Below the pieces are notes generated by a model that ran no database searches, was not told where the DNA came from, and was given only the letters and a program-made list of their open reading frames with translations. Below, one piece after another: positions 2,586 to 48,380 of a stretch of DNA of 49,261 bases; the stretch's first letter is position 1; each line of letters begins with the position of its first letter. The stretch lies in contig JBBITJ010000005.1 of NCBI GenBank assembly GCA_037440825.1, positions 1 to 49,261 of the forward strand, written 5' to 3'. Source of the stretch: Candidatus Micrarchaeota archaeon. GTDB lineage: Archaea > Micrarchaeota > Micrarchaeia > Anstonellales > Bilamarchaeaceae. The position numbers and the translations under genes were made by a program.

Positions 2586-5260
2586 ATGGCCAAGCGAATT
2601 GAAGTGAAATTCAAGGACGAGATCAAGGACCCCAGGGGCGAACGTTTGGCCGCGCTGCTGCGCACCGAATTCAAGGCAAAGGTCTCCAAGGTCGCGGTCA
2701 TAGACGCCTTCAGCATGGACGCGGACCTGGACGAAAGGGAGCTGGAGTTTCTGGGCATGGAGGTGTTCAGCGACAAGGTCGTGCAGGAATACTCCTACAT
2801 GAAGCCACTCGGCCGGGGCTGGCGGGTGGAGATAGGCTACCGGCCGGGAGTGACCGACAATGTGGGCAAGACAGGAAAGGATGCGATAGGGGACGCGCTC
2901 GGCAAGGAAGTTGATGTATATTCCAGCATGGTGTACGCGATAGACGGCGACATCGATGAAGAGGTCTGCGGCGAATTCGGGAAGAGGCTGGCGAACGAGC
3001 TCATACAGAGCATAAAGGTGAGCGCCCCAGATGCGCCGGAAGCCGAGACGTTCGCGCCCAACATACCCAAAGTGGTCCTGAAGCAGGAGGTAGTTGTGGA
3101 GAAGGTGAAGCTCCCTGCTGACGAGGAGAAGCTGGAGCAACTATCCAGGAGCAGGCTGCTCGCGCTCTCCGTGGCCGAGATGAAGGCGATCAGGAAATAC
3201 ATCACGTCCAAGAAGATTGTGGAGCAGAGGGCCGCGCAGGGGCTTTCCGACGAGATCACTGATGTGGAATTGGAAGTGATAGCGCAGACATGGAGCGAGC
3301 ACTGCAAGCACAAGATATTCAACGCCGAGATAAATTACAGCGAGGGCGAGGACAACTACAATGTCGATTCATTGTTCAAGACGTTCATACGCGGAGCCAC
3401 GGAGATGCTCAAGAAGCCGTACGTGGTTTCCGCGTTCAAGGACAACGGCGGCATAATCAAGTTCAGCCCTGCGTACGACATAGCTGTGAAGGTGGAGACG
3501 CACAACGCGCCGAGCGCAATAGACCCGTACGGAGGCGCGCTTACCGGAATATTGGGCGTGAACAGGGATATATTGGGAACTGGGATGGGAGCATACCCGA
3601 TAGCGAATGTTGACATGCTGTGCTTCGGGCCGCTGGATGCGGTTGAATCCGGAGCCGAAGACTTGAAACCCGGATGCGCGGTTGTGCCCCAAGGCGTGCT
3701 TCACCCGCGCAGGATATACGAAGGTGTGGTGGAGGGGATAAAAGACGGCGGCAACAAGAGCGGCATCCCCACAGTGAACGGCTCATTCACTTTCGAGCCC
3801 GGATTCGTGGCGAGGCCCGTGATATACTGCGGAACCGTAGGGATTATGCCTTCGGAAATAAAGGGGCGCAAGACTTCGGAGAAGAAAATTGAGCCAGGAT
3901 ACCTCGCGGTGATGGTTGGGGGCAGGGTAGGCAAAGACGGCATACACGGCGCGACTTTCTCCTCGCAGCAGCTCGAGAACAACATACCCACGAGCGTGGT
4001 GCAGATAGGAGACCCGATAACGCAGAAGAAGGCGATCGATTTCATAATGGAGGCGAGGGACGAGCTCCTTTACGAGGCAATAACAGACAACGGCGCAGGC
4101 GGCCTCTCGTCGAGCATAGGCGAGATGGCGGAGCAGAGCAACGGCTGCGAGATATGGCTTGATGCGGTTCCGCTCAAATATCCTGGGCTCCAGCCCTGGG
4201 AAATACTCGTTTCGGAGAGCCAGGAGCGCATGACGCTCGCTGTGAAGAAGGAGAATATGGAGCGGCTGGAGGAGCTCGCGAAAAAGCACGAAGTCGAGAT
4301 AACCGCAGTGGGCAAGTTCACTGACAGCGGCAAGCTGCACGCCCTCTACGAGGGCAAGACGGTCGCGTACCTAGACCTGGATTTCCTCCACCACCCGCCG
4401 AGGCTCAAGCTGGCTGCGAAATGGCAGAGGAAGACTTTTCCCGAGCCTAATATCAGGGAACGCGACCTTTCCGCTGCGCTGAAAAGGCTGCTGGCCTCGC
4501 CTAACATAGCATCCAAGGAGCACACGATAAGGCGCTACGACCACGAGGTGCAGGGCAAGAGCGTGATAAAGCCGCTCATGGGCAACAACGCGCCCTGCGA
4601 CGCAGCTGTCATAAAGCCGGATTTCGCGAGCTGGGAAGGACTGGTGGTGTCGCACGGCATCTGCCCGAAGTACGTCCAGGACAGCTACGACATGGCCANN
4701 NNNNNNNNNNNNNNNNNNNNNNNNNNNNNNNNNNNNNNNNNNNNNNNNNNNNNNNNNNNNNNNNNNNNNNNNNNNNNNNNNNNNNNNNNNNNNNNNNNGA
4801 GCTCGGGGGGAGCGAATACTACCGATTGTTCGGTGGAGTAGGGAACAGGAACCCCAAGGTGCACGTGGACGAGACGCTGCCGCTCTACCGCGCGTTCTCC
4901 GCTGCTTGCGAAATGAAGCTGGTGAAATCCGCGCACGATATATCGGACGGCGGGCTCGCTGTCGCGCTCGCTGAATCCAGCTTCCCGTCAGGCAAGGGTG
5001 TTGAAATAGACATACTCAAGGTGCCTGCGGAAACGCAGAACGAGGACGCTGTCCTGTTCTCGGAATCAGGAGGCAGGTTCGTGGTGAGTGTGGCGGAGAA
5101 GGACACGCAGAAATTCGAGAAGGTGATGGACGGGACTGTTTTTGCGCGTGTAGGCAGGGTGCGCGGGGACAAAAGATTCGTGGTGAAGAAAGGCGATGCG
5201 GTGCTCATTAACGAAAACACGCGCGACCTCAAGGCCATCTGGAACGGTGTGAAGATATGA
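2586..5260 (+). CDS. purL: Phosphoribosylformylglycinamidine synthase PurL with N-terminal PurS-like domains (interrupted by gap 4699-4798)
   Basis: AQTWSEHCKHKIF, KVETHNAPSAIDPYGGALTG, DNGAGGL, SESQERM, SAHDISDGGL. N-terminal DPRG and YRPGVTDNVG resemble PurS repeats. Confidence 0.95.
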
Positions 5261-7514: not shown

Positions 7515-7530
7515 TGTAACTATAGTTACA
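7515..7530. promoter_or_regulatory. Perfect 16-bp palindrome TGTAACTATAGTTACA between divergent ubiA-like and purF promoters
   Basis: Seen directly; flanked by TATA-like TTTAAA (7494-7499) and TTTTAAA (7566-7572). Confidence 0.7.
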
Positions 7531-8996: not shown

Positions 8997-10553
8997 ATGA
9001 TGGCAGTAGTCATGATTCAGACGGACGAAATAACCAGGATGACCGGTCTCAGGAAGGAGCAGGTGCTGGAAAGCCTCAACAACATAGGGATGCCTGCCGA
9101 AGAGGCGGAAGGTGAGATTGTTGTGGAGATCACGCCGAACAGGCCCGACCTTTTCTCCATCGAGGGGCTTGCCAGAGCGCTGGATTCGTTCCACGGCAGG
9201 AAACCCAGGAATTATTCAGCGAAGAAATCCCAGTACGTTGCGAAAATAGACCCCTCGATCGGCAAGTCCAGACCATATTTCGTCTCAGCGGTGGTCAAGA
9301 ATGTGAGGATGGACGAAAGCGCGCTCAAATCGCTCATCCAACTCCAGGAGAAGCTCCATGAAACAGTCGGAAGGAAAAGGAAAAAAGTCGCCATCGGCGT
9401 GCACAACGCCGATGAGGTCGTTTTCCCGCTCGAGTACAGATTTGTGAAGAACGAAAGGTTCGTACCCCTGGACTTCGACCGCGAGATGGACATCCCGGAG
9501 CTGCTGGAAAGCCATCCCAAAGGCAGGGCGTACGCGCACCTCGTGAAGGACGGCTACCCGATGCTCTACGACAGAAAAGGTGTGATTTCATTCCCTCCAA
9601 TAATAAACAGCGAGCGCACCCGCGTGACTGAAAAGACAAGGAACTTGGTGATAGACATCACCGGCACTCATCTTGGAACCCTCAAAGGCGTGCTCAACAT
9701 ACTGGTCTGCGCGCTCGCCGACCGCGGAGGCGAGATTTATGAGGTCGCTGTCGGCAAAGCAACTTGCCCTGAGCTCGAGCCTGTGAAAATGGCTGTGCAG
9801 GCGGAGGAAATAAGCAAGCTCCTCGGCCAGAAGTTCAGCAAAAAACAAATATTCGAGAACCTCGCACGCCTCGGCTGGCCCAACGACGGGAAGAACGCGC
9901 TAGTGCCACCTTACAGGATGGACGTGTCGCATTACGCCGATATGGCTGAAGACGTCGCGATCGCGATAGGATACAACAATTTCGAACCCTCGCTGCCCAA
10001 TTTCTTCACCCCAGGCGCACTCGCGTACAACAACGACGATGTGAGGCAGGCGATGGTAGGCCTCGGGTTTGTGGAAGTGGTAAATTACGCGCTCACGAAC
10101 GAAAGAAAGCTCAAGCTCGTGCACAAGGACAGCAGGCCTGTGAAGGTGCTCAACCCCAAGACAGAGGAATTCACGCTGCTGCGCACCAATCTCGCAGTTT
10201 CGCTGCTTGACAACCTGGCGCTGAACAGGTCGCAGGAGCTTCCTATAAGGATTTTCGAGATAGGCAGAGCGTACGAAGGTAAGGAGAAAATCCACCTGGC
10301 CTTCGCGATGTCCGCAGAAGCGATTGATTTCAGCGCCATACGCGGCGTCTTGCAATCCGTTTCGTCCGTCATGGAGAAGGGATTCGAGCTCAAGCCGTCC
10401 AAAAGCAGGATGTTCATCACAGGTAGGGGGGCTGAAATATATTTGGATGGTAAAAAAGCCGGTGAAATAGGTGAAGTCTCACCTTATATACTGGAAGGTT
10501 TTGGTATAGAAAACCCAGTCTGCATTTGCGAAATAGAGATAATGGATGTGTAG
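8997..10553 (+). CDS. pheT: Phenylalanyl-tRNA synthetase beta subunit (archaeal type)
   Basis: EITPNRPDLFSIEGLARAL, QLQEKLH, SFPPIINS, VPPYRMDV...EDVAIAIGYNN. Confidence 0.97.
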   Translation: MMAVVMIQTDEITRMTGLRKEQVLESLNNIGMPAEEAEGEIVVEITPNRPDLFSIEGLARALDSFHGRKPRNYSAKKSQYVAKIDPSIGKSRPYFVSAVVKNVRMDESALKSLIQLQEKLHETVGRKRKKVAIGVHNADEVVFPLEYRFVKNERFVPLDFDREMDIPELLESHPKGRAYAHLVKDGYPMLYDRKGVISFPPIINSERTRVTEKTRNLVIDITGTHLGTLKGVLNILVCALADRGGEIYEVAVGKATCPELEPVKMAVQAEEISKLLGQKFSKKQIFENLARLGWPNDGKNALVPPYRMDVSHYADMAEDVAIAIGYNNFEPSLPNFFTPGALAYNNDDVRQAMVGLGFVEVVNYALTNERKLKLVHKDSRPVKVLNPKTEEFTLLRTNLAVSLLDNLALNRSQELPIRIFEIGRAYEGKEKIHLAFAMSAEAIDFSAIRGVLQSVSSVMEKGFELKPSKSRMFITGRGAEIYLDGKKAGEIGEVSPYILEGFGIENPVCICEIEIMDV

Positions 10554-10557
10554 AGGG

Positions 10558-10577
10558 ACCCCATAGTTCCACTATTA
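10558..10577 (-). promoter_or_regulatory. ORB-like element, left (TAATAGTGGAACTATGGGGT on minus strand)
   Basis: AGTGGAA core plus G-string as in archaeal origin recognition boxes; 13-bp perfect inverted repeat with 10903-10915. Confidence 0.45.
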
Positions 10578-10599
10578 TTCTAAGCAAGGTTTCCCAGTT

Positions 10600-10836
10600 T
10601 CAATAAAGCTGCTCCACATTCTCAGTTCGTATCTTATAAACCTCTATTTCCCCTTTGAAACCTCTGAAAAACGAATCCATCACTTTCTCGTACTTATCAG
10701 CAACTGCAAGCACCGATTTTGTCTTGAACGAAAAATCAGCAAGCCGAATCTTGTTGAAATGATAATAAAAACTGCGTTTCAGCCTTCTATAATCCCCTTT
10801 CTTCTTAGGTTTCAAGTCATAAAAATAAACCAACAT
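10600..10836 (-). CDS. Stand-alone Cas2/VapD-like small basic protein
   Basis: MLVYFYDL...YRRLKRSFYY...KTKSVL resembles the Cas2 YD motif and Q/xSV strand. SD-like GGTGA at 10841-10845; alternative TTG start at 10839. Confidence 0.6.
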   Translation of the reverse strand: MLVYFYDLKPKKKGDYRRLKRSFYYHFNKIRLADFSFKTKSVLAVADKYEKVMDSFFRGFKGEIEVYKIRTENVEQLY

Positions 10837-10858
10837 CAAATCACCAACCCCAATACAA

Positions 10859-10876
10859 ATGTAACTATAGTTACAT
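10859..10876. promoter_or_regulatory. Perfect 18-bp palindrome ATGTAACTATAGTTACAT in the cas2-like promoter
   Basis: Seen directly; lies between the AT-rich TATA region (10881-10900) and the start codon. Confidence 0.7.
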
Positions 10877-10902
10877 ACGTTTTTAATTTTTAATATTGTA
10901 TT

Positions 10903-10915
10903 TAATAGTGGAACT
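10903..10915 (+). promoter_or_regulatory. ORB-like element, right (TAATAGTGGAACT)
   Basis: Exact reverse complement of 10565-10577; adjoins the AT-rich tract 10880-10905. Confidence 0.45.
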
Positions 10916-11101
10916 GTACCCCCTACCCCACTACTTACTCTATTTTTTGTTGTTTGTTTCCGGCCTCCAGCTGTTGGCGTTTTGACGGCTATTTCATGAA
11001 AAGCTTCTACTTTTCCCGATCCAGTTCCCAGCTCCTGGCTTCTGTTTCCAACTTTCCAACTTCCAAATTGTTTTTATTCACCAAACCCCCAAAACAACAT
11101 C

Positions 11102-12619
11102 ATGAAGCTCGAACCGAGGGAATACCAGAAATCCATATTCAATTCCATAAAAGAGCAGGGCAACATGCTCGTGGTGCTTCCCACAGGGCTGGGCAAAACC
11201 CTGATCGGTTTCATGCTTATAGAAGAAAAAATAAAAAGTGGGAAATGTATGTTCCTCGCTCCGACCCGCCCGCTTGTGCACCAACACTACACCTCTTTCC
11301 TCCAGATTTCCGAAACCGATTCGGCATCGGTCGCGACAGTGACCGGCGAAATCCCGAAAAAGAAGCGCGCTTCACTATACGAAAAGAAAGTTATATTCTC
11401 CACCCCCCAGACGATAAAGAACGACCTCCTTTCCGGAACACTTGCAGACCCGTCCGCATTTTCCCTCTGCATATTCGACGAGGCGCACCGCGCGGTGGGC
11501 AACTATGCGTACACACTCGTTGCTGAAAAGATGAAGGAAAGCGCCCTCATAGTGGGGCTGACCGCCTCCCCGGGCGGAAACCGCGAGCGCATATCCAAGA
11601 TACTTTCCAACCTGTTCATAAAGAACGTCCAGCTCAGGACCAAGCACGACGCAGACGTGAAAGGGTATGTGAAGGAAATCAAAATCAAATGGCTTGAAAC
11701 TACACTCACCCCGGAATTGAAAGAGGTCAAATCCATCCTGGATTCCCTCATCTCGACCTATTCGCGCAACCTTGCGGCAATGGGCTTCCCACCTCAGATA
11801 AAATCCAAACGCCTCTTCCTCGCGCTCCGCCAGAAGATACTGAATATCCAGAGCAACGCCAAATACCCCATCCTCGTCACATACTCCATCCTGCTCAACC
11901 TGCTCCACATGCAGGAGCTCGTGGAAACCCAGGGCGCATCAGCGCTCAGGAGCTACCTGGAAAAGATGGCGGCTAAGGACACCAAGAGCGCATCAGCCCT
12001 GCTCAGGAAGCCTGAAATAGCGCGCATCAAGGCGATGCTCACATCAACTTCTGAGGAGCACCCCAAGCTCGCCATGCTCCTCAACCTCCTGAAGAAAATG
12101 GAAGGGAAGAAAGTGATAGTGTTCGCGCAATACCGGGACCAGGTGGCGCTCATAGAGAAAAAGCTGGTCGAAGCGGGAATCCCCGCGCGCATGTTCCTCG
12201 GCAAGAAAGGCGACTACACGAAAAAGCAGCAGGAGGAAACCCTTGACCAGTTCCGCTCCGATGCGTTCCGCGTCCTAGTCGCCAGTTCGATAGGCGAGGA
12301 AGGGCTCGACATCCCGGCAGTGGACGCAGTGATATTCTACGAACCGACGCCGAGCGAGATACGGAGTATCCAGCGCCGCGGCCGAGCAGGCAGGTTCAAG
12401 GAAGGTGAGGTCTACATCCTCATAACCAAAGGCACCCGTGACGAGTTTTTCCACTGGGCAGCGATAAACCGCGAAAAGAGGATGAAGCGCATAATCTCAG
12501 GCATGCAGAAAAGCTCCAGCAGCCTTCTGGCCACAGACCAACAACCAGAAAAAACCCATTCAGATGCAAAACCCGAAACCCACGCATCAGGACAATCGCG
12601 GCTAGACCGCTTTTTCTAG
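11102..12619 (+). CDS. Hef/FANCM/Mph1-like SF2 helicase without ERCC4 nuclease domain; C-terminal PIP box
   Basis: EPREYQ, LPTGLGKT, DEAHRAVGNYAY, TASPG, GEEGLDIP, IQRRGRAGR; ends QSRLDRFF. Confidence 0.92.
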   Translation: MKLEPREYQKSIFNSIKEQGNMLVVLPTGLGKTLIGFMLIEEKIKSGKCMFLAPTRPLVHQHYTSFLQISETDSASVATVTGEIPKKKRASLYEKKVIFSTPQTIKNDLLSGTLADPSAFSLCIFDEAHRAVGNYAYTLVAEKMKESALIVGLTASPGGNRERISKILSNLFIKNVQLRTKHDADVKGYVKEIKIKWLETTLTPELKEVKSILDSLISTYSRNLAAMGFPPQIKSKRLFLALRQKILNIQSNAKYPILVTYSILLNLLHMQELVETQGASALRSYLEKMAAKDTKSASALLRKPEIARIKAMLTSTSEEHPKLAMLLNLLKKMEGKKVIVFAQYRDQVALIEKKLVEAGIPARMFLGKKGDYTKKQQEETLDQFRSDAFRVLVASSIGEEGLDIPAVDAVIFYEPTPSEIRSIQRRGRAGRFKEGEVYILITKGTRDEFFHWAAINREKRMKRIISGMQKSSSSLLATDQQPEKTHSDAKPETHASGQSRLDRFF

Positions 12620-15600
12620 CGGTCTGAACTTCCTTTTTTCCCCATACCCGCCTTTTCCGAACCGCTCCTTGAAATAGTAAATCGCAGCCGCAGCAGCCAC
12701 GAAAACTGCGCTCGCGAGAAGCACTCCGCTGTAATCCTGCCTGTCCTCTGCAGCGGAAAGCACCTTGATTATTTCATCACTGGCTTCGAGCGCCTTCACA
12801 TATTCCCCCGCTTCCAGATAGCTGTCGAGTTCCGCAGCCAGCGCAGCAGCCTTCTTCCTTTCCTTTTCCTGAATCTTCTGCCCGTACGCCTCGTACGCCG
12901 CCATCGCTTCCTGCGCGTTGCGCCCTGCTGCTCCTTCCAAATAATCCAGCGTGGATTCCATCCCTCCTATATAATCAGAAATCGAGGCGTACTGCCTCCC
13001 AATCTCATCCATATCCTCTTTTCCTATCGCTTTCTTCATGCTGGAAACCGCAGCCTTCACATCCGCACTGTCCACCTTGAAAACGCTTTCGAACCTGCTT
13101 CCTTTAGCATCCGAGGCTGCTTTTGAATAATCGTCCAGAACCGCTTCCGCTTCCTCTACGAGTGCCTGCGCCCCTTCCGCAATCTCAGCCCTTTTCGCCG
13201 CGCTCGCGTTCTCCAACACCTCTACATTCGCCTCCAGCCCGTCCAGCGCTGCATCCAATCCGAATGCATCAACAAGCTCCCCGCTCGCCTCGAATTTGTC
13301 ATACTCCGCCCTGGCCTTGCCGAACATCACCGAGACCTGCGCATCCGCTTCCCCATTGTCCAGATACCTCGCATACAGCCGGTTGAGCTTGCCGGAAGCG
13401 TTTTTCCTGTACTCCTTCATCTGGTCCGCGAGCCACCCATTGTCATATCCACTGAGCGCAGAGACCTGCGCGCTCGCATTCATCCCCTCCAAGGAGGAAA
13501 TCAGCCTCTCGAGGTAATCCTTTCTTGCTGAAACCTTATCGTACAATCCACTTCTCACAACAGCCTCGCCGAGCGCAGCGCCTATCTTGTTGATTTCAGC
13601 CGCCACTTCAGAACGCAGCCTGTCGCGCTTCGCTTCGAGCTTCTCCAGCTCCACCTCATCCTTCCTGATCTGTTCGTATGCCTGCTGGAGCTTTTCCACT
13701 GCCCTTACCTCATCCATAGCAGCAAGCGCATCGCTCGCTTCGTCCACCAACGCCCTCGCACTAGCGCTGATGTTGGAGGCGTTGAGCTCTTTTATGGTCG
13801 CGTTGACGTATGCAGAGGTGTTGTCCACGTAATAACTCACCTCGAACCTCGCGGCCTTGCCCTTCTTCAGTCCGTACACNNNNNNNNNNNNNNNNNNNNN
13901 NNNNNNNNNNNNNNNNNNNNNNNNNNNNNNNNNNNNNNNNNNNNNNNNNNNNNNNNNNNNNNNNNNNNNNNNNNNNNNNCCACGTAATAACTCACCTCGA
14001 ACCTCGCGGCCTTGCCCTTCTTCAGTCCGTACACACGCACCACATATCCGTCTGCGGTTTCCATAGCCTCGACTTTTTCCCCAGTTACTGTTATCACTTG
14101 CTTTTCCCGCACCTCGTCCTGTGGCGGCACTTCCGCGAAAGTTTCAAGATATACCATATCCACATTTGGAACCAGCTCGATCTGGTACCTCTGGTACGTT
14201 CGTTCCCCTATCTTGGTACTCAGGTTCTTGGCGAACTTCCTTTCATACGCGTCTTGCATGGTGTATTGCGCTTCGAACGTGTGCAGCCCCTCCTCAAGTT
14301 TCCTTGAAACCATTCCCCCTTCCCCAATCGCGGCAGGCACTCCATCTATGTAAAGCCCGTCCCACGTTTCCGCCACAGCGAAGCGCCAGACATCCCCTAT
14401 CGTGCGCACATCTCTTGACTCGGTGATCATTGCCGAATAATTCTGGAACCCGATCGCGTCCACACTAACCTTCTCCGTTTTCATCACTACTTCCCGCTTT
14501 TCAAACAAATACCTCTGCCTTTCGTAGCCGCCTATCGCCTTCAGATAGAGCCTGATTTTCCCGTCATAGTAAGCCACGCCCCGCAGCAAGTCTGCGCCTA
14601 TCACGACGTCATCCTGGCTGAATTCCACTTTCGAGCCCGCTTCCACCACCAGATTCTTGCCTGCGTAAGGTGCCGCATTGACCACTATGATCTCGAGGCT
14701 GGATTCAGATTCGCCGTCCAGCACCGCATCCTCGGAATAGAGCGAAGCGCTGGCCAGCAGCCTGCCTGCACCCAGATTCACCATGCTTTCGTGCGCATCC
14801 TTCAAAATCTCCCCATACTTTTTCCGTAGTTCAGCGAGCGAGCCGACCGCTTCAGGGTACGAAATCGTCCCGGCAGACACAAGCCCTGCTTCGGCTTGTT
14901 CAACCATGAGTGCGAGGTCCGTGCAACCCTCCCCGCATTCTTCTATCGCAGCAATCACCTCCCCTCTCAACCTGGGAAGGTCCGAATACCGTTCCATCGC
15001 GCTTTCACCCACGCTGGCGATTATCGCCGAACACCCTGCCAGCAGCGCGGAAGCGTTGTCCCCATTTTCCAGCACCGAAAGGTACGCTCTCTCGAATTCC
15101 ACCTGGATGCCGTCAGTTTCCGCCCGTGCGAGCAGCGCCTCCGCTTCCGCGCACGTTCCAATCGCGCTCCAGTTCGTATCAGCTTCAGCCTCGCTCGAGA
15201 CCGCGAGCGCAGCCTCGGCATCAGCGATCGCCCTCGCATAATACTCTAGCCTCCTTCCCTGAATTTCCTCATCCAGCCCTGCCTGGAATTCAGCTTCTGC
15301 ATCATCGTAAAGCGCCTTTGCCCTGGAAGGCCAGGCAGAGCTCGCGAATTTCCTCTCCACGTCAGAAATCCTCACCCTGGCTTCGCCTTCATACTCCTGC
15401 ACGACCGTTTCAACCACGTCCAGCGCAGCCGAGAACTCGTCTTCCGCCTGCTTCGCAAGCTCCCTTGCCGCAGTCGCGTTTGCGAGCGCATTCTTCAGAT
15501 AGCCGCTTCCGCGGTGGGCTGCAGCTGTCTCGGCATATTCCAGCCTTCTTTTCGCCTCCGCGACGTGCCTCTTACCGCTTTCAGCCAATTCGTCCACTGC

Positions 15601-16593
15601 AGCGAGTCCGTCCCCTATGTTTTCCCCGAATACCGCGCTTCCCCCTACCCTCCACAATTCGGCATCGTCCGCTGCCTGCTCCATCAGCTCCGCAGCGGCA
15701 ATCTCCGCAACAGCTTCCGCGCGCACGCTTTCGTAATTTGCCGCGCTTCCGCTTACCTGTGCATCCACCTGCGCTGCAGCCGCATTTACCTTATTCACAG
15801 CGCCGAAGTAATCGTCGCCTATGATATTCATGGGCCAGCCGAACTCTATCAGGGGCACGTCGTCATAAACCCGCAGGGTGTTGTTCTCCAGCATGCTCCT
15901 CACCAGCGCGAAATCCCCGCTTCCACCTTTTCCAGCAGCAGCGAGCAACGCCTCCGCTTCCGCGCACGCTTCGTGCCCTGCGACGTCCTGTCCGCAAACC
16001 CCTGCGTATTCAGCTTCAATCAGCGCAGCCTCCAATCCAACAAGCGCTCCATTCAGCCTCTTGACCCGCGCTTCGAGCGCATCTAGGGCATTGTTCATCG
16101 TCCCTCTCCATGCCTTCGCGTAATCTTCCGAGAACCACCTCTTCGCGATGAAATACCTGAAATCCCGGCCGAAGTTGAGATTGCAATTAATCGCCCTGTC
16201 CACAACGAAGCACGCGCAGTTCGCGTCTCCGGAAGCGGCGCATATGTCCTTCACGTTATATATGTAAGGCAATATCCAGTAATTGGTGAAGTCGTCGACC
16301 TGCGTCCAGATGTTTCTCGCCAGCGAATAGTTCCCTTGTGCCTCGCGCACAGTGGGTGCGTCCCTATACTCCCCTTCCACGGAATTCACCGCGAGCCGGT
16401 CCAGGCTCGCCTGCGTTTGGTATATATCCCACTCCGGCGAGAGCGGCGGCACGAGGGTGTAATCCACTACATCAGAATTCCCTGGCCACTGGACCTCATA
16501 ATTCCACGGCCTCGCGAACGTCTGTGGAAAAGGGTCTATCGCAAACGAAACTAGAACTAGCGCAAGGAGCCCAAAACCTTCCTTTTTGAGCAT
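12602..16593 (-). CDS. Giant membrane-anchored surface protein (~1278 aa after closing the artefactual gap)
   Basis: N-terminal signal peptide, Ala/Glu-rich helical regions, central beta-rich segment, C-terminal TM and basic tail. 55 bp is duplicated on both sides of gap 13880-13979; collapsing it gives an in-frame 3837-nt ORF. Confidence 0.8.
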
Positions 16594-38233: not shown

Positions 38234-39006
38234 ATGGCAGAACTGGAAGCGTTCCTGGAAGTGGCGTTCAGCCGCCTCATAGAGCTGCTGACCGCCCCGC
38301 TCCTCTACCCAGACATGCTCTGGATCGTCTTCCCTCTTTTCGGGACNNNNNNNNNNNNNNNNNNNNNNNNNNNNNNNNNNNNNNNNNNNNNNNNNNNNNN
38401 NNNNNNNNNNNNNNNNNNNNNNNNNNNNNNNNNNNNNNNNNNNNNNCCGCCCCGCTCCTCTACCCAGACATGCTCTGGATCGTCTTCCCTCTTTTCGGGA
38501 CTCTTTTTCTGATGCAGGCCTATTTCGCGAGGCATAACGAATCATTGGGATGGAACACCGCGTTCGCGAACGGGGTGGCGCTCATTTTCGTGGTGTTCGA
38601 CCTCATGCGCAGAACCTACGGTGCGTCCCAGGAATTCCTTTCATTGCTCTTCTCCGCAGCCAACCTCCCGCACACGCTCGTCATCGCGTTCCTTTTCCTT
38701 TACGCGCTGTTCGTGCTCTCCATAAATTTCTTCCGCCTCCTCCCGGATTACCTGAGCTTCTTTCTTTCATCCTATCCTGTCACCACAGGGCTGGCGTACG
38801 TCGCGATAGCGATAGTGTATTCCGAAATCCAGCTCAGCGAACCGACCGCTCTCGCAATCCTCGTATTCTATTCCATCCTTTTCCTCGCCCTCTTCGCGTT
38901 CAAAACCGTGATGGGAAAGGTGCTCCTGTCCCTCTTCCCTTCCAAAGGGGAGAATCTGGAGCGGGAGTTCAAGAGGAAGCTGGGCAAAGGGGAAATAGAA
39001 CTCTGA
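38234..39006 (+). CDS. Hypothetical membrane protein (~205 aa after closing the artefactual gap)
   Basis: 55-bp duplication flanks gap 38347-38446; collapsing it gives one in-frame ORF with ~6 TM helices. Confidence 0.75.
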
Positions 39007-40886: not shown

Positions 40887-41934
40887 TCAGCTTTCTTGTC
40901 TATTCCAAGCCATAAACNNNNNNNNNNNNNNNNNNNNNNNNNNNNNNNNNNNNNNNNNNNNNNNNNNNNNNNNNNNNNNNNNNNNNNNNNNNNNNNNNNN
41001 NNNNNNNNNNNNNNNNNGCGTTGGCCTTGTCATCCACGTTCAGCTTCACTTCTATCTCGTACGGAATATCGGCCCACATCCTCCCGTGCAGGTGCATGAA
41101 CGCTAGTTTTGTGTTGCCCAAAAACGGCACGTAATCCGATGGCCCGATGTGTATCTGCCTCTCGTCCAGAGGCACCTTGAGCTGGCTCTGCACGCTCTCC
41201 GTCTTTGAAATCTTCTTGCTCTCGAGGCGCTCGCGCTCGAGCATGTTCTTGAAATCCGTGTTCCCTCCGACGTTGAGCTGGTATGTGTGCAGCAAGTCGG
41301 CTCCGCGGTCTGCGATGAGCCTGGTGAGCACCCTGTGCACTATTGTCGCCCCGATCATGCCCTTCATGTCATCGCCAATCACTGGAAGCTTCGCTTGTGC
41401 GAATCTCCTCTCCCATTTCGGGTTGGAAGCTATGAAAACTGGAATCGCGTTCACGAGCGCGCAATTGGTCTTGAGCGCTATTTCAGCCCAGAACTCCGTG
41501 GCCTTCTGGCTTCCCACAGGAAGGTAATTCACGAGTATTTCGGTGCCGCTATTCTTTATCTCGGCAATGATCTCCTTCTCCAGTTCCTCTACAGGCCTTT
41601 CCTTCACCGGCTCCACCATGCCTACGAGGTATTTGCCCAGCCCGTCGTAGAGCGGGCTCTGCCTCACCACGACCTGGCTCTTTGGAATCCTCACCCATTG
41701 CACCATGTTCGGTTTCGCGTACAGCGCCTCGTCAAGGGTTTTGCCCACCTTGTTGTCGGCGACATCGAACGCGCTGGCTATTTCTATATCGCGCACGTCG
41801 TAGCCGCCTATGTCCTGGTGCATTATGCCCACGACCTCGCGCTCCGGGTGCTGCCTGTAATACTCTATGCCCTCTATGAATCCCGCGGCGCAGTTCCCCA
41901 CGCCTATTATTCCGACCTTGATCTTCCTTGCCAT
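40887..41934 (-). CDS. ino1: Myo-inositol-1-phosphate synthase (gap 40918-41017; 3' end uncertain)
   Basis: GVGNCA, NYLPVGS, GDDMK, QLNVGGNTDF, SKKISKT. Confidence 0.95.
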
Positions 41935-43604: not shown

Positions 43605-43915
43605 TTTCTCACCATGATTTTGTAATCTAGATACTCAAAAAGGTTTCTCAAAAAGGTTTAAAATGATCTACATGCCGAGCCCCTTGAGCCTGCATCTCCT
43701 TCCCTCATCATATTCTCTATTTGCCGAAACCCAGGGGAAACTTATTCTCTGGAACAAGGCGTTTCCACTCAAGTTCCACAGCCCTCCCCGCCTCCATTCC
43801 AATATCACTCACATANNNNNNNNNNNNNNNNNNNNNNNNNNNNNNNNNNNNNNNNNNNNNNNNNNNNNNNNNNNNNNNNNNNNNNNNNNNNNNNNNNNNN
43901 NNNNNNNNNNNNNNN

Positions 43916-47083: not shown

Positions 47084-48380
47084 ATGGACAAGACGGACAG
47101 GAAAGAGAAGGAGAAGGAGCTGCAGAGACTCATTTCGCTGACTTTTGACGAGAATCCGGAAGTGAGGAAGCAGGCCGCCCTCAAGCTCTCGGAAAGCGAC
47201 GAGCCCGGAGCGACATTCGCGCTCCTCGAGCTCACCTACGACAAGGATGAGAGCGTGAAATCCCTCGTGAGGGAGATACTCTCCAAGAAGCCGCCGCAGG
47301 ACAAGGATTCGATCTCCTTTGCGGACCTATTCAGCCAGCCGGAAGTCCAGGAGCAGGTGCCTGCCGCAGCGCCCACCCCAGAGGAGGACATGAAGAAAAA
47401 GAAGCTGCTCTCCCCGGTGGAGCAGATATTCGAGAAGCGGCTGGGCAAGACCAAGGCCGCGCTGGTGAAGGACAGGATGATGTCCACCATCGAGAAGATT
47501 TACATCAAGGCGGTCTCGTCCAAACCCGAGGACTCGCAGAAACGCGAGAAGAGTATGCAGAAGATGCTCACGTCCTACGCGGACATCCTTTCAGGGCTGG
47601 ACAAGCTAATGTTCGAAGACAGGAATGAGCGCGAGGAGAAGATGGCCGAAGTGCAGACCGTCCAGGAGGCGCAGCCCGNNNNNNNNNNNNNNNNNNNNNN
47701 NNNNNNNNNNNNNNNNNNNNNNNNNNNNNNNNNNNNNNNNNNNNNNNNNNNNNNNNNNNNNNNNNNNNNNNNNNNNNNCCGAGCCGATTCTGGAGGAGAT
47801 AGGCAACAAGCCCGATTCCTCCAAGATCGCGCAGGACCTTTCCGCGCTCGCGGCGCAGGAAGACACGCGGGATGAGCTGCCCAAGGAACTCTTTCAGGAA
47901 GACGATTCCGCTTCGGGCTGGAATAAGTCCGTGTTCAGGAAGGCCTACGAAATCATGATGGCCGCGGATGGCGACGAGGAGGTAATGGAGCAGCAGAGGC
48001 AGGACCTCCTCAAGCAGCTCGAGAAGGAAGTGCACCTCGCGTTCAGGCTCGCGAAGCAGCGCTTCAAGTCCGAGAACATAACGCACCTCACGGAACTCAG
48101 GGACGGAATGAGGAACGTGAATACCGACATCCTGACTGTGAAATCCTGCGACCTTGGCGAATACGCCAAGACCAAGACCAAGAAGGACACCTACGCGCGC
48201 ATCACGGTGAATGATTCGGAAGGAAGCGAAGGCGTGGTCTATCTTTTCGACGGAAGGGGCAAGGAGGTGCGCCCAGGCATGATGATAAAAGTGGTTAAGG
48301 GCCAGGTCAAGACGTTCAATTTCTCCAAGGAGACCGCGATAACTGTGGGCAAGAAAGGGAGCGTCTATATTGTCCTCTAA
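47084..48380 (+). CDS. HEAT-repeat plus C-terminal OB-fold protein (gap 47679-47778)
   Basis: DENPEVRKQAA / DKDESVK HEAT repeats; C-terminal ITHLTELRDGMRNVN...ITVND...LFD...GMMIKV..G.V is RPA/SSB-like. Confidence 0.65.

Follow-up and report, generated by a model that had tools for sequence, protein, structure and literature searches.

We analysed a stretch of 49,261 nucleotides (the window) from the 875-kb genome of a Candidatus Micrarchaeota archaeon, and within it a short module in which two inverted boxes, resembling the origin recognition boxes (ORBs) of archaea, enclose a small gene, a palindrome and an AT-rich tract between pheT and a helicase gene. pheT, which encodes the beta chain of phenylalanyl-tRNA synthetase (8997-10553, plus strand; Pfam tRNA_synthFbeta, B5 and B3_4), ends with a stop codon that abuts the left box (10558-10577, minus strand). 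Between the boxes lie a gene for a 78-residue protein with a Cas2-like fold (10600-10836, minus strand; ATG at 10836 and an in-frame TTG at 10839), a perfect 16-bp palindrome, TGTAACTATAGTTACA (10860-10875), placed between the start of the small gene and the AT-rich tract, and that tract itself (10866-10907), which is a candidate unwinding element and also the minus-strand TATA region of the small gene. The right box (10903-10923, plus strand) is followed by the gene of a Hef-like helicase without the nuclease domain (11102-12619, plus strand; Pfam ResIII and Helicase_C), which matched NCBIfam NF010337 with 526.7 bits (cut-off 610) over profile positions 15-527 of 781. Gene calls throughout are our own, made with a codon-usage caller, and gaps of N in the window break some genes.

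Each box is about 20 nt long and consists of a core, AATAGTGGAA, a spacer of 4-5 nt and a string of G or C, and the two stand as an inverted pair with their strings distal. The left box has the C-string CCCC, a 4-nt spacer and the core TTCCACTATTA; in the right box the core TAATAGTGGAA is followed by a 5-nt spacer and a C-run, which comes after the right arm (CTGTACCCCC). The initial annotation of this DNA had described a perfect 13-bp inverted repeat with an extended left copy, around an AT-rich island of some 340 bp. The repeat was recovered as the arms AGTTCCACTATTA (10565-10577) and TAATAGTGGAACT (10903-10915), 13 nt each, which match perfectly in inverted orientation across an interval of 325 nt, and so was its extension, the left arm running on into a G-string on the minus strand (TAATAGTGGAACTATGGGGT). 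Outward of the arms an imperfect complementarity was found between 10531-10557 and 10919-10945 (27 nt, 70%), the left of these outer arms overlapping the last pheT codons and ending in the G-run GAGGG. The GC content, which is 0.539 over the whole window, falls to 0.342 between the arms and to 0.115 in 10877-10902, and the 40-mers starting at 10866-10868 rank among the most AT-rich of the window. The module is an AT-rich tract between inverted repeats that are conserved, each box ending in a G-string in most families of the order; it has just two boxes and adjoins no Orc1/Cdc6 gene. Perfect 13-nt inverted repeats whose spacer is 500 nt or less are, by themselves, not above chance: the window has one, and at least one is present in 53 of 200 block shuffles (mean 0.44). 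The weight therefore comes from conservation.

The comparison set consisted of 41 genomes of the order, that of the window (G000) included; here and below, G labels denote genomes, L labels loci and C labels contigs. Boxes and palindromes were counted in 33 loci oriented alike, namely the window and 32 from relatives, with 27-28 shifted positions as controls, and a box was called when its core matched with at most two mismatches and a run of G or C lay no more than 14 nt away. Of the 33 loci, 26 had the left box, 21 the right box, 19 both boxes and 29 the palindrome, against 0-1, 1-4, 0 and 0, respectively, in the shifted controls. In relatives belonging to several families of the order the small gene has a box on either side. 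The C-terminal codons of pheT directly precede the left box also in L012, L018, L019 and L025, and relatives, G037 among them, again have an AT-rich stretch between the palindrome and the right box. Outside the window's family the boxes are true mirror images with distal G-strings, the right box ending in GGGGTC, and the consensus there is AATAGTGGAA-GTRT-GGGGTC (L046, L047, L052, L054, L055, L056 and L024). The left box of the window's family carries a near-palindromic GGGACCCC, for which we have no explanation. It is the sequence of the box itself that is conserved, beyond mere pairing; variants common to both boxes of one genome (L024, L025 and L054) would fit either co-evolution with one binding protein or pairing.

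The boxes are also present where the small gene is not. In G037 some 110 nt separate the two boxes, an interval taken up by the palindrome and an A-rich spacer alone. The boxes are flanked there by a tRNA-Met gene and by a different neighbour on the other side, and a separate contig carries the small gene. In G017 one box and the palindrome remain beside the end of pheT, without the small gene. On contig C43 of G003 (L231) pheT is followed by a tandem pair of left-type boxes, TTCCGGTATA and TTCCAGTATA, both preceded by a run rich in C, and by a degenerate palindrome; this 95%-complete genome gave no match to the small gene, and the contig ends 352 nt further on. A tRNA-Met (CAT) gene adjoins the boxes in G037 (L059), G029 (L056), G039 (L052) and G031 (L047), and the 3' end of the tRNA gene with the two following bases (TTCCCGCTATT or TTCCCACTATT) resembles the box core, a likeness that may be accidental or may reflect the way in which the boxes arose.

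The locus coincides with a switch in strand composition. A switch had been noted by eye in the initial annotation, and when computed over the 49-kb window the cumulative G-C curve peaked at position 10,557, immediately ahead of the left box. The switch is seen in all site classes, third codon positions among them. To the left of the locus the GC skew is 0.154 in plus-strand genes, 0.091 in minus-strand genes and 0.139 in intergenic DNA, and to the right it is 0.011, -0.205 and -0.153, respectively; at third positions of plus- and minus-strand genes it is 0.048 and 0.067 on the left and -0.084 and -0.181 on the right. Since every site class changes, the switch is not merely one of gene orientation. 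The coding strand of hef was likewise found to be C-rich, as had been noted of this plus-strand gene, the skew of the overlapping 1-kb windows ranging from -0.23 to -0.07.

Skew was examined in seven genomes from five families, G000 included, and the sign change coincides with the locus in six of them, that is, in five of the six relatives. The cumulative maximum is at 117.0 kb in G029 (locus at 117.1-117.5 kb), at 95 kb in G032 (locus at 96.4 kb) and at 495 kb in G031 (locus at 497.6-498.3 kb), where a lower peak stands at cdc6, at 450 kb; in G037 it is at 25.0 kb, exactly at the boxes without the gene. In G021, a genome in one contig, the curve climbs once, beginning at about 34 kb, reaches its global maximum at 845,914 and then falls once, the small gene being at 866,012. 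Such a whole-contig course is not that of two origins. The maximum falls where a 12-kb gene begins whose coding strand is very rich in C, and the skew is positive at 860-865 kb and negative from 865 kb. No known RNA family was found between 840 and 860 kb of G021, and the strongly negative skew of that segment is due to the 12-kb gene and not to rRNA. Giant genes of 4,000-8,000 codons with strongly C-rich coding strands (4-24177, 39103-54120 and 845895-857855) distort the cumulative skew of G021 at both extremes of the curve. A coincidence in the same genome, the locus being halfway between two weak Orc1-like matches at 292 and 1,437 kb, was considered and dropped in view of the single rise and single fall. 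The recurrence of the switch at the locus, in six of seven genomes from five families, makes the locus a landmark of replication, most likely its start and less likely its end, and it lends support to the replication module proposed in the initial annotation.

The boxes were compared with those of Pyrococcus. In PMC1904270, the P. furiosus ORB1 and ORB2 oligonucleotides that bind Cdc6 have a C-string, 10 nt and then TTCCACTGGA; TTCCAGTGGAACT is given as a mini-ORB; TTCC and GAA are held to be the invariant core; and the Pyrococcus oriC has two long ORB repeats arranged as an inverted repeat, mini-ORBs and AT-rich regions, and is bound by Cdc6/Orc1. The left box shares with ORB1 and ORB2 the 7-mer TTCCACT and a C-string on the same side, which agrees with the ORB-like character first ascribed to the boxes; the last 9 bases of the Pyrococcus 13-mer and of the right arm are identical; and in both systems an inverted box pair surrounds AT-rich DNA. 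On this resemblance to tested Cdc6-binding sites the boxes are putative ORBs. The two systems differ in the spacer between string and core, which is 4-5 nt here (4 nt in the left box) and about 10 nt in Pyrococcus. Furthermore, no mini-ORB cluster was found in the module, which has instead a coding gene and a palindrome between its boxes, and the Pyrococcus origin lies beside cdc6, whereas in G000 cdc6 is on another contig.

We thus consider it probable, though well short of assured, that the module is the chromosomal origin of replication, or one of the origins, of this archaeon and its order, of the Orc1/Cdc6-ORB type and uncoupled from cdc6. In solved ORB complexes the winged helix of the initiator lies on the core and its AAA+ part on the G/C string. 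We infer that Orc1/Cdc6 would bind each box here in the same way, the TTCCAC core being contacted by the winged helix and the string by the AAA+ part, that the AT-rich tract beside the right box would then melt, and that MCM would be loaded between the boxes, from which two forks would leave. At single boxes in the promoters of cdc6 and mcm the same protein would feed back on replication genes. To our knowledge no origin has been mapped in very small uncultured archaea of the Micrarchaeota type, and a literature search for origins in Micrarchaeota gave no paper on the subject among the 12 best-ranked of 100 matches.

The polarity of the switch weighs against this interpretation. The plus strand is G-rich to the left of the locus and C-rich to the right, at third codon positions and in intergenic DNA alike, and by the bacterial rule a cumulative G-C maximum marks the terminus, so that a concern raised on this point in the initial annotation was justified. 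The locus may accordingly be asked to stand as a replication terminus or fork-meeting zone, with the boxes acting as polar fork barriers or as a resolution site, perhaps bound by the small protein, a reading that we consider unlikely. A small conserved gene between inverted repeats would suit it, and would recall the arrangement in Bacillus subtilis, where the gene of the terminator protein adjoins its inverted sites. Local gene order points the same way: genes of the window converge on the locus in 34 of 53 calls (7 of 11 on the plus strand to the left, 27 of 42 on the minus strand to the right), the genes of L31e, S19e, FtsY and SRP54 to the right of the locus all point toward it, the genes of G032 converge on it within 60 kb, and within 50 kb of it in G021 26 core genes point toward it and 18 away. 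In PMC12999951, however, skew polarity is not uniform in archaea, the correlation of third-position skew with gene strand bias being -0.17 +/- 0.61 across archaeal chromosomes and Haloferax volcanii being anticorrelated. As the bacterial skew rule is thus unsafe in archaea, gene orientation was used to tell start from end.

At the scale of a chromosome, gene orientation in G021 favours a start. Of its 534 genes with a strong homologue in G000, 311 point away from 866 kb and 223 toward it (binomial p 1.6e-4). The cumulative strand bias of these conserved genes has a broad minimum, lowest at 829 kb, and when all 1,269 gene calls are used the minimum lies between 831 and 922 kb. With its skew maximum at 846-866 kb and its strand-bias minimum at 829 kb, G021 shows the opposite directions of the two measures that characterise Haloferax volcanii; the haloarchaea described in PMC12999951 have several mapped origins, whereas the origin proposed here is predicted from sequence. 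All four markers of G021 point away from the locus (16S at 1.509 Mb, plus strand; 23S at 227 kb, minus; the L2 cluster at 1.373 Mb, plus; rpoB at 1.227 Mb, plus). When every contig with the locus is taken together, 11 of 15 rRNA, ribosomal-protein and RNA-polymerase markers do so, 7 of 11 when G021 is left aside (rpoB and 16S of G031; 23S of G029, G032, G037 and G024; 16S of G035), and four point toward it, as a terminus would have them (L2 of G011, 23S of G031 and of G035, 16S of G029). Orientation within 60-100 kb, summed over G029, G031, G032 and G033, gave 387 genes away and 374 toward and does not decide between origin and terminus. The balance between the two is tipped only by the gene orientation in the single-contig G021. 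Some rRNA matches were longer than their models (16S, 3.8 kb; 23S, 5.1 kb) or came in abutting pieces (G033:C4:89709-93474, G032:C1:184353-189465 and G037:C10:100700-103031), which suggests rRNA introns or insertions in the order.

A terminus is further disfavoured by the closeness of the initiator gene described below, by the likeness of the boxes to ORBs bound by Orc1, with single copies in the promoters of cdc6 and mcm, and by G037 and G017, where the small gene has left the boxes; the skew switch stays with the boxes. We therefore continue to favour an origin, and several further observations have to be set against it. The relatives are kin, so that counts across genomes are not independent, and G021, on which gene orientation was weighed, is one contig of 1,571,539 nt with a completeness estimated at 87% by marker count and closure not established. 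G033 has no switch at the locus, its minimum being 35 kb away. The right box of the window's family bears a C-run where other families have a G-string, for which we have no explanation, and GGAA, the second dyad half in the Pyrococcus boxes of PMC1904270, is absent from the boxes here, which have ATTA instead. A coding gene fills most of the space between the boxes, so that the AT-rich island first described holds as to its composition but is mostly not empty spacer. Finally, cdc6 is not adjacent to the boxes.

As had been noted at the outset, there is no cdc6 beside the boxes, nor is there one in the window; the genome gave a single Cdc6_C match, on contig C14, where the full Cdc6 is encoded at C14:21639-22883, and a paralogue, 33% identical, is on C6. 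An origin without an adjacent cdc6 is atypical for archaea according to PMC4010727. The gene is nonetheless 9-95 kb from the locus in all eight genomes that have both on one contig, the distances being 9 kb in G016, 18 in G033, 40 in G037, 49 in G031, 58 in G014, 64 in G029, 69 in G032 and 94 in G021. An ORB cluster beside cdc6 had been named in the initial annotation as a finding that would speak against the present locus. Upstream of cdc6 in G000 there are indeed inverted arrays of GGAAAC-type heptamers around an AT-rich stretch (L005, 5902-5935 and 6014-6041, and once more at 4619-4638), lying between cdc6 and a gene for what, read by eye, could be SepF. These arrays were not found in the same cdc6 spacer of the four same-genus relatives that were read (L101, L102, L103 and L105), whereas the boxes are conserved across families, and the second Orc1 paralogue has no upstream spacer. 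No rival origin site beside the initiators is thus conserved in congeners. In view of the lower peak at cdc6 in G031 a second, weaker origin at cdc6 is possible, and the arrays of G000 may mark a further origin peculiar to this strain or a regulatory site.

Copies of the box elsewhere bear on a different explanation, namely that the boxes are mere operators of a transcription factor, possibly Orc1, for hef, mcm and cdc6, the switch being a by-product of local gene order. A search of the 875-kb genome for the 13-mer with at most one mismatch gave three sites, the two arms and a site in the mcm promoter (C20:11033-11045; about 1507-1519 of L003), where TTCCACTATTA is followed by GT and CCCC and lies 6 nt past a TATA box, TATTAAAA. 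This arrangement is shared by G005 and G013 and recurs in weaker form in G010, G021 and G008, and a box is present in the cdc6 promoter or leader of G021, G012, G019, G018, G017 and G016. The exact 9-mer core was found upstream of mcm in 3 of 29 loci and upstream of cdc6 in 4 of 26; with at most one mismatch allowed, there were 2.2 sites per kb upstream of these two genes against 0.26-1.16 per kb in the genome backgrounds. Single boxes of this kind, which in several relatives follow the TATA box of the mcm or cdc6 promoter at 6-20 nt, would suit an operator, as would the right box of G004, about 45 nt before the start of hef. However, the left box of most genomes lies where two convergent genes end, a place that has no promoter. 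The switch, moreover, is at the boxes in six of seven genomes despite different neighbours, G037 included, and it affects intergenic DNA and genes of both orientations. The pattern WTAGTGGAA-N3-6-GGGG gave 35 listed matches (30 distinct sites) in 22 of the 41 genomes, whereas its reversed form, used as a control, gave 10. Of the distinct sites, at least 19 belong to the locus described here, and 9 of the 11 others that were read are inside open reading frames. The rarity of the box away from the locus and its single copies ahead of mcm and cdc6 count in favour of an origin. A role of the boxes as operators and nothing else is, in our view, quite improbable.

Pairing of the arms in RNA, as a long-range stem that encloses the small mRNA and serves in its processing or stabilisation, appears very improbable. 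It would account for a complementarity that reaches about 45 nt in the window, for changes matched in both arms (TTCCGGTATT/AATACCGGAA in L024 and ATTA in L025), and for a G-to-A difference in G037 that would give a G-U pair on one strand. Yet the sequence is conserved and not just the pairing, single unpaired copies occur in the mcm and cdc6 promoters, the right arm precedes the small gene's AT-rich promoter tract, and the distal C-runs of the window's family, being on the same strand in both arms, are unable to pair. No Rfam family was found in 10300-11300 at E<=1, and the persistence of the boxes without the gene, in G037 and G017, itself makes an mRNA stem unlikely. By the same persistence a mobile cassette is excluded: that the arms are the terminal inverted repeats of a small mobile element, as the initial annotation had considered, here one carrying the Cas2-like gene, would suit a perfect 13-bp inverted pair bracketing a low-GC gene but is ruled out by a gene present almost always once in 35 of the 41 genomes, in the order pheT-gene-hef wherever neighbours were read, with no empty site seen in relatives and no further copies of the pair in 875 kb.

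The small gene at the module is itself conserved. Its 78-residue product has close homologues with 68-78% identity, from 'Candidatus Burarchaeum australiense' and 'Candidatus ainarchaeum sp.', and 51 cluster representatives match it at E<=1e-3; with these and the matches in 35 of the 41 genomes, the open frame is, as judged by homology, a real gene. A ribosome-site-like GGTGAT precedes its start. No family was found for the protein in Pfam (E<=10), NCBIfam or PADLOC, and the ESM Atlas gave no name. An AlphaFold2 model built with 39 sequences (pLDDT 94.7) has a beta-alpha-beta-beta-alpha-beta fold resembling that of the small nucleases Cas2 and VapD, with an invariant Asp at the end of strand 1. 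Foldseek gave no match to the model in the PDB at E<=1e-3, and its best matches, to Cas2 (6jhz, 8ia4 and 5xvn) and VapD (6zn8), were weak (E 6e-3, TM 0.58). The label 'cas2like' given initially thus suits the fold, as far as these weak matches go, but not the sequence family, and the protein is unlike Cas2 and VapD in lacking a sequence-family match and in being encoded by a single-copy gene at a fixed place, between pheT and the gene of the Hef-like helicase. Upstream of hef, at 11043-11068, there are three tandem TTCCAAC-like units (GTTTCCAACTTTCCAACTTCCAAAT), which are not present in G004, whose spacer is just about 45 nt.

The palindrome occurs in the 875-kb genome only in the window, where it is perfect at 10860-10875 and at 7515-7530, before purF; a third copy with two changes (2485-2500) precedes the purS-purL fusion. 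Six runs of 100 N, which are scaffold gaps, were noted in the window (4699-4798, 13880-13979, 38347-38446, 40918-41017, 43816-43915 and 47679-47778), one of which splits purL and another a 908-codon frame at 13867-16593. Close matches to the palindrome, defined as having at most one change with the dyad symmetry kept, number one each in G021, G029 and G031, at the locus or no more than about 0.5 kb from it, and five in G032, where the other copies are near genes resembling pyrE, purD and PCNA (starts of the neighbouring proteins read by eye). G033 has its sole copy at the locus, with one asymmetric change. In the same-genus loci L007, L008, L010, L011 and L012 a second copy was seen inside the hef coding region, where it codes for VTIVTG, about 340-400 nt past the first; it has been lost from the window's own hef. 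The palindrome looks like a candidate operator that would link nucleotide synthesis, replication genes and the small gene at the boxes, which we offer as a lead only.

If the module is the origin, a wider proposal can be made, and we put it forward tentatively, as one that is itself doubtful. The origin of the order may be a composite control module, made of two Orc1 boxes, always the 16-bp palindrome, which also stands before genes of purine and pyrimidine synthesis and possibly before that of PCNA and inside hef, and usually a Cas2-fold gene under control of the palindrome. Such an origin, cut loose from cdc6, would wire its own firing to the supply of nucleotides and to a new small protein resident there, and its leading strand would be C-rich, the reverse of the bacterial rule.

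Should the assignment as an origin be true, the signature of AATAGTGGAA, 4-5 nt and a G/C string, as an inverted pair, would place origins in the fragmented genomes of this order, and the locus would be a case of an archaeal origin parted from its initiator gene. The bacterial skew rule would here name the wrong end of the chromosome, which would matter for origin finders and for growth-rate estimates from read depth. The conserved protein of Cas2-like fold and the palindromic operator would be candidates for replication-linked control.

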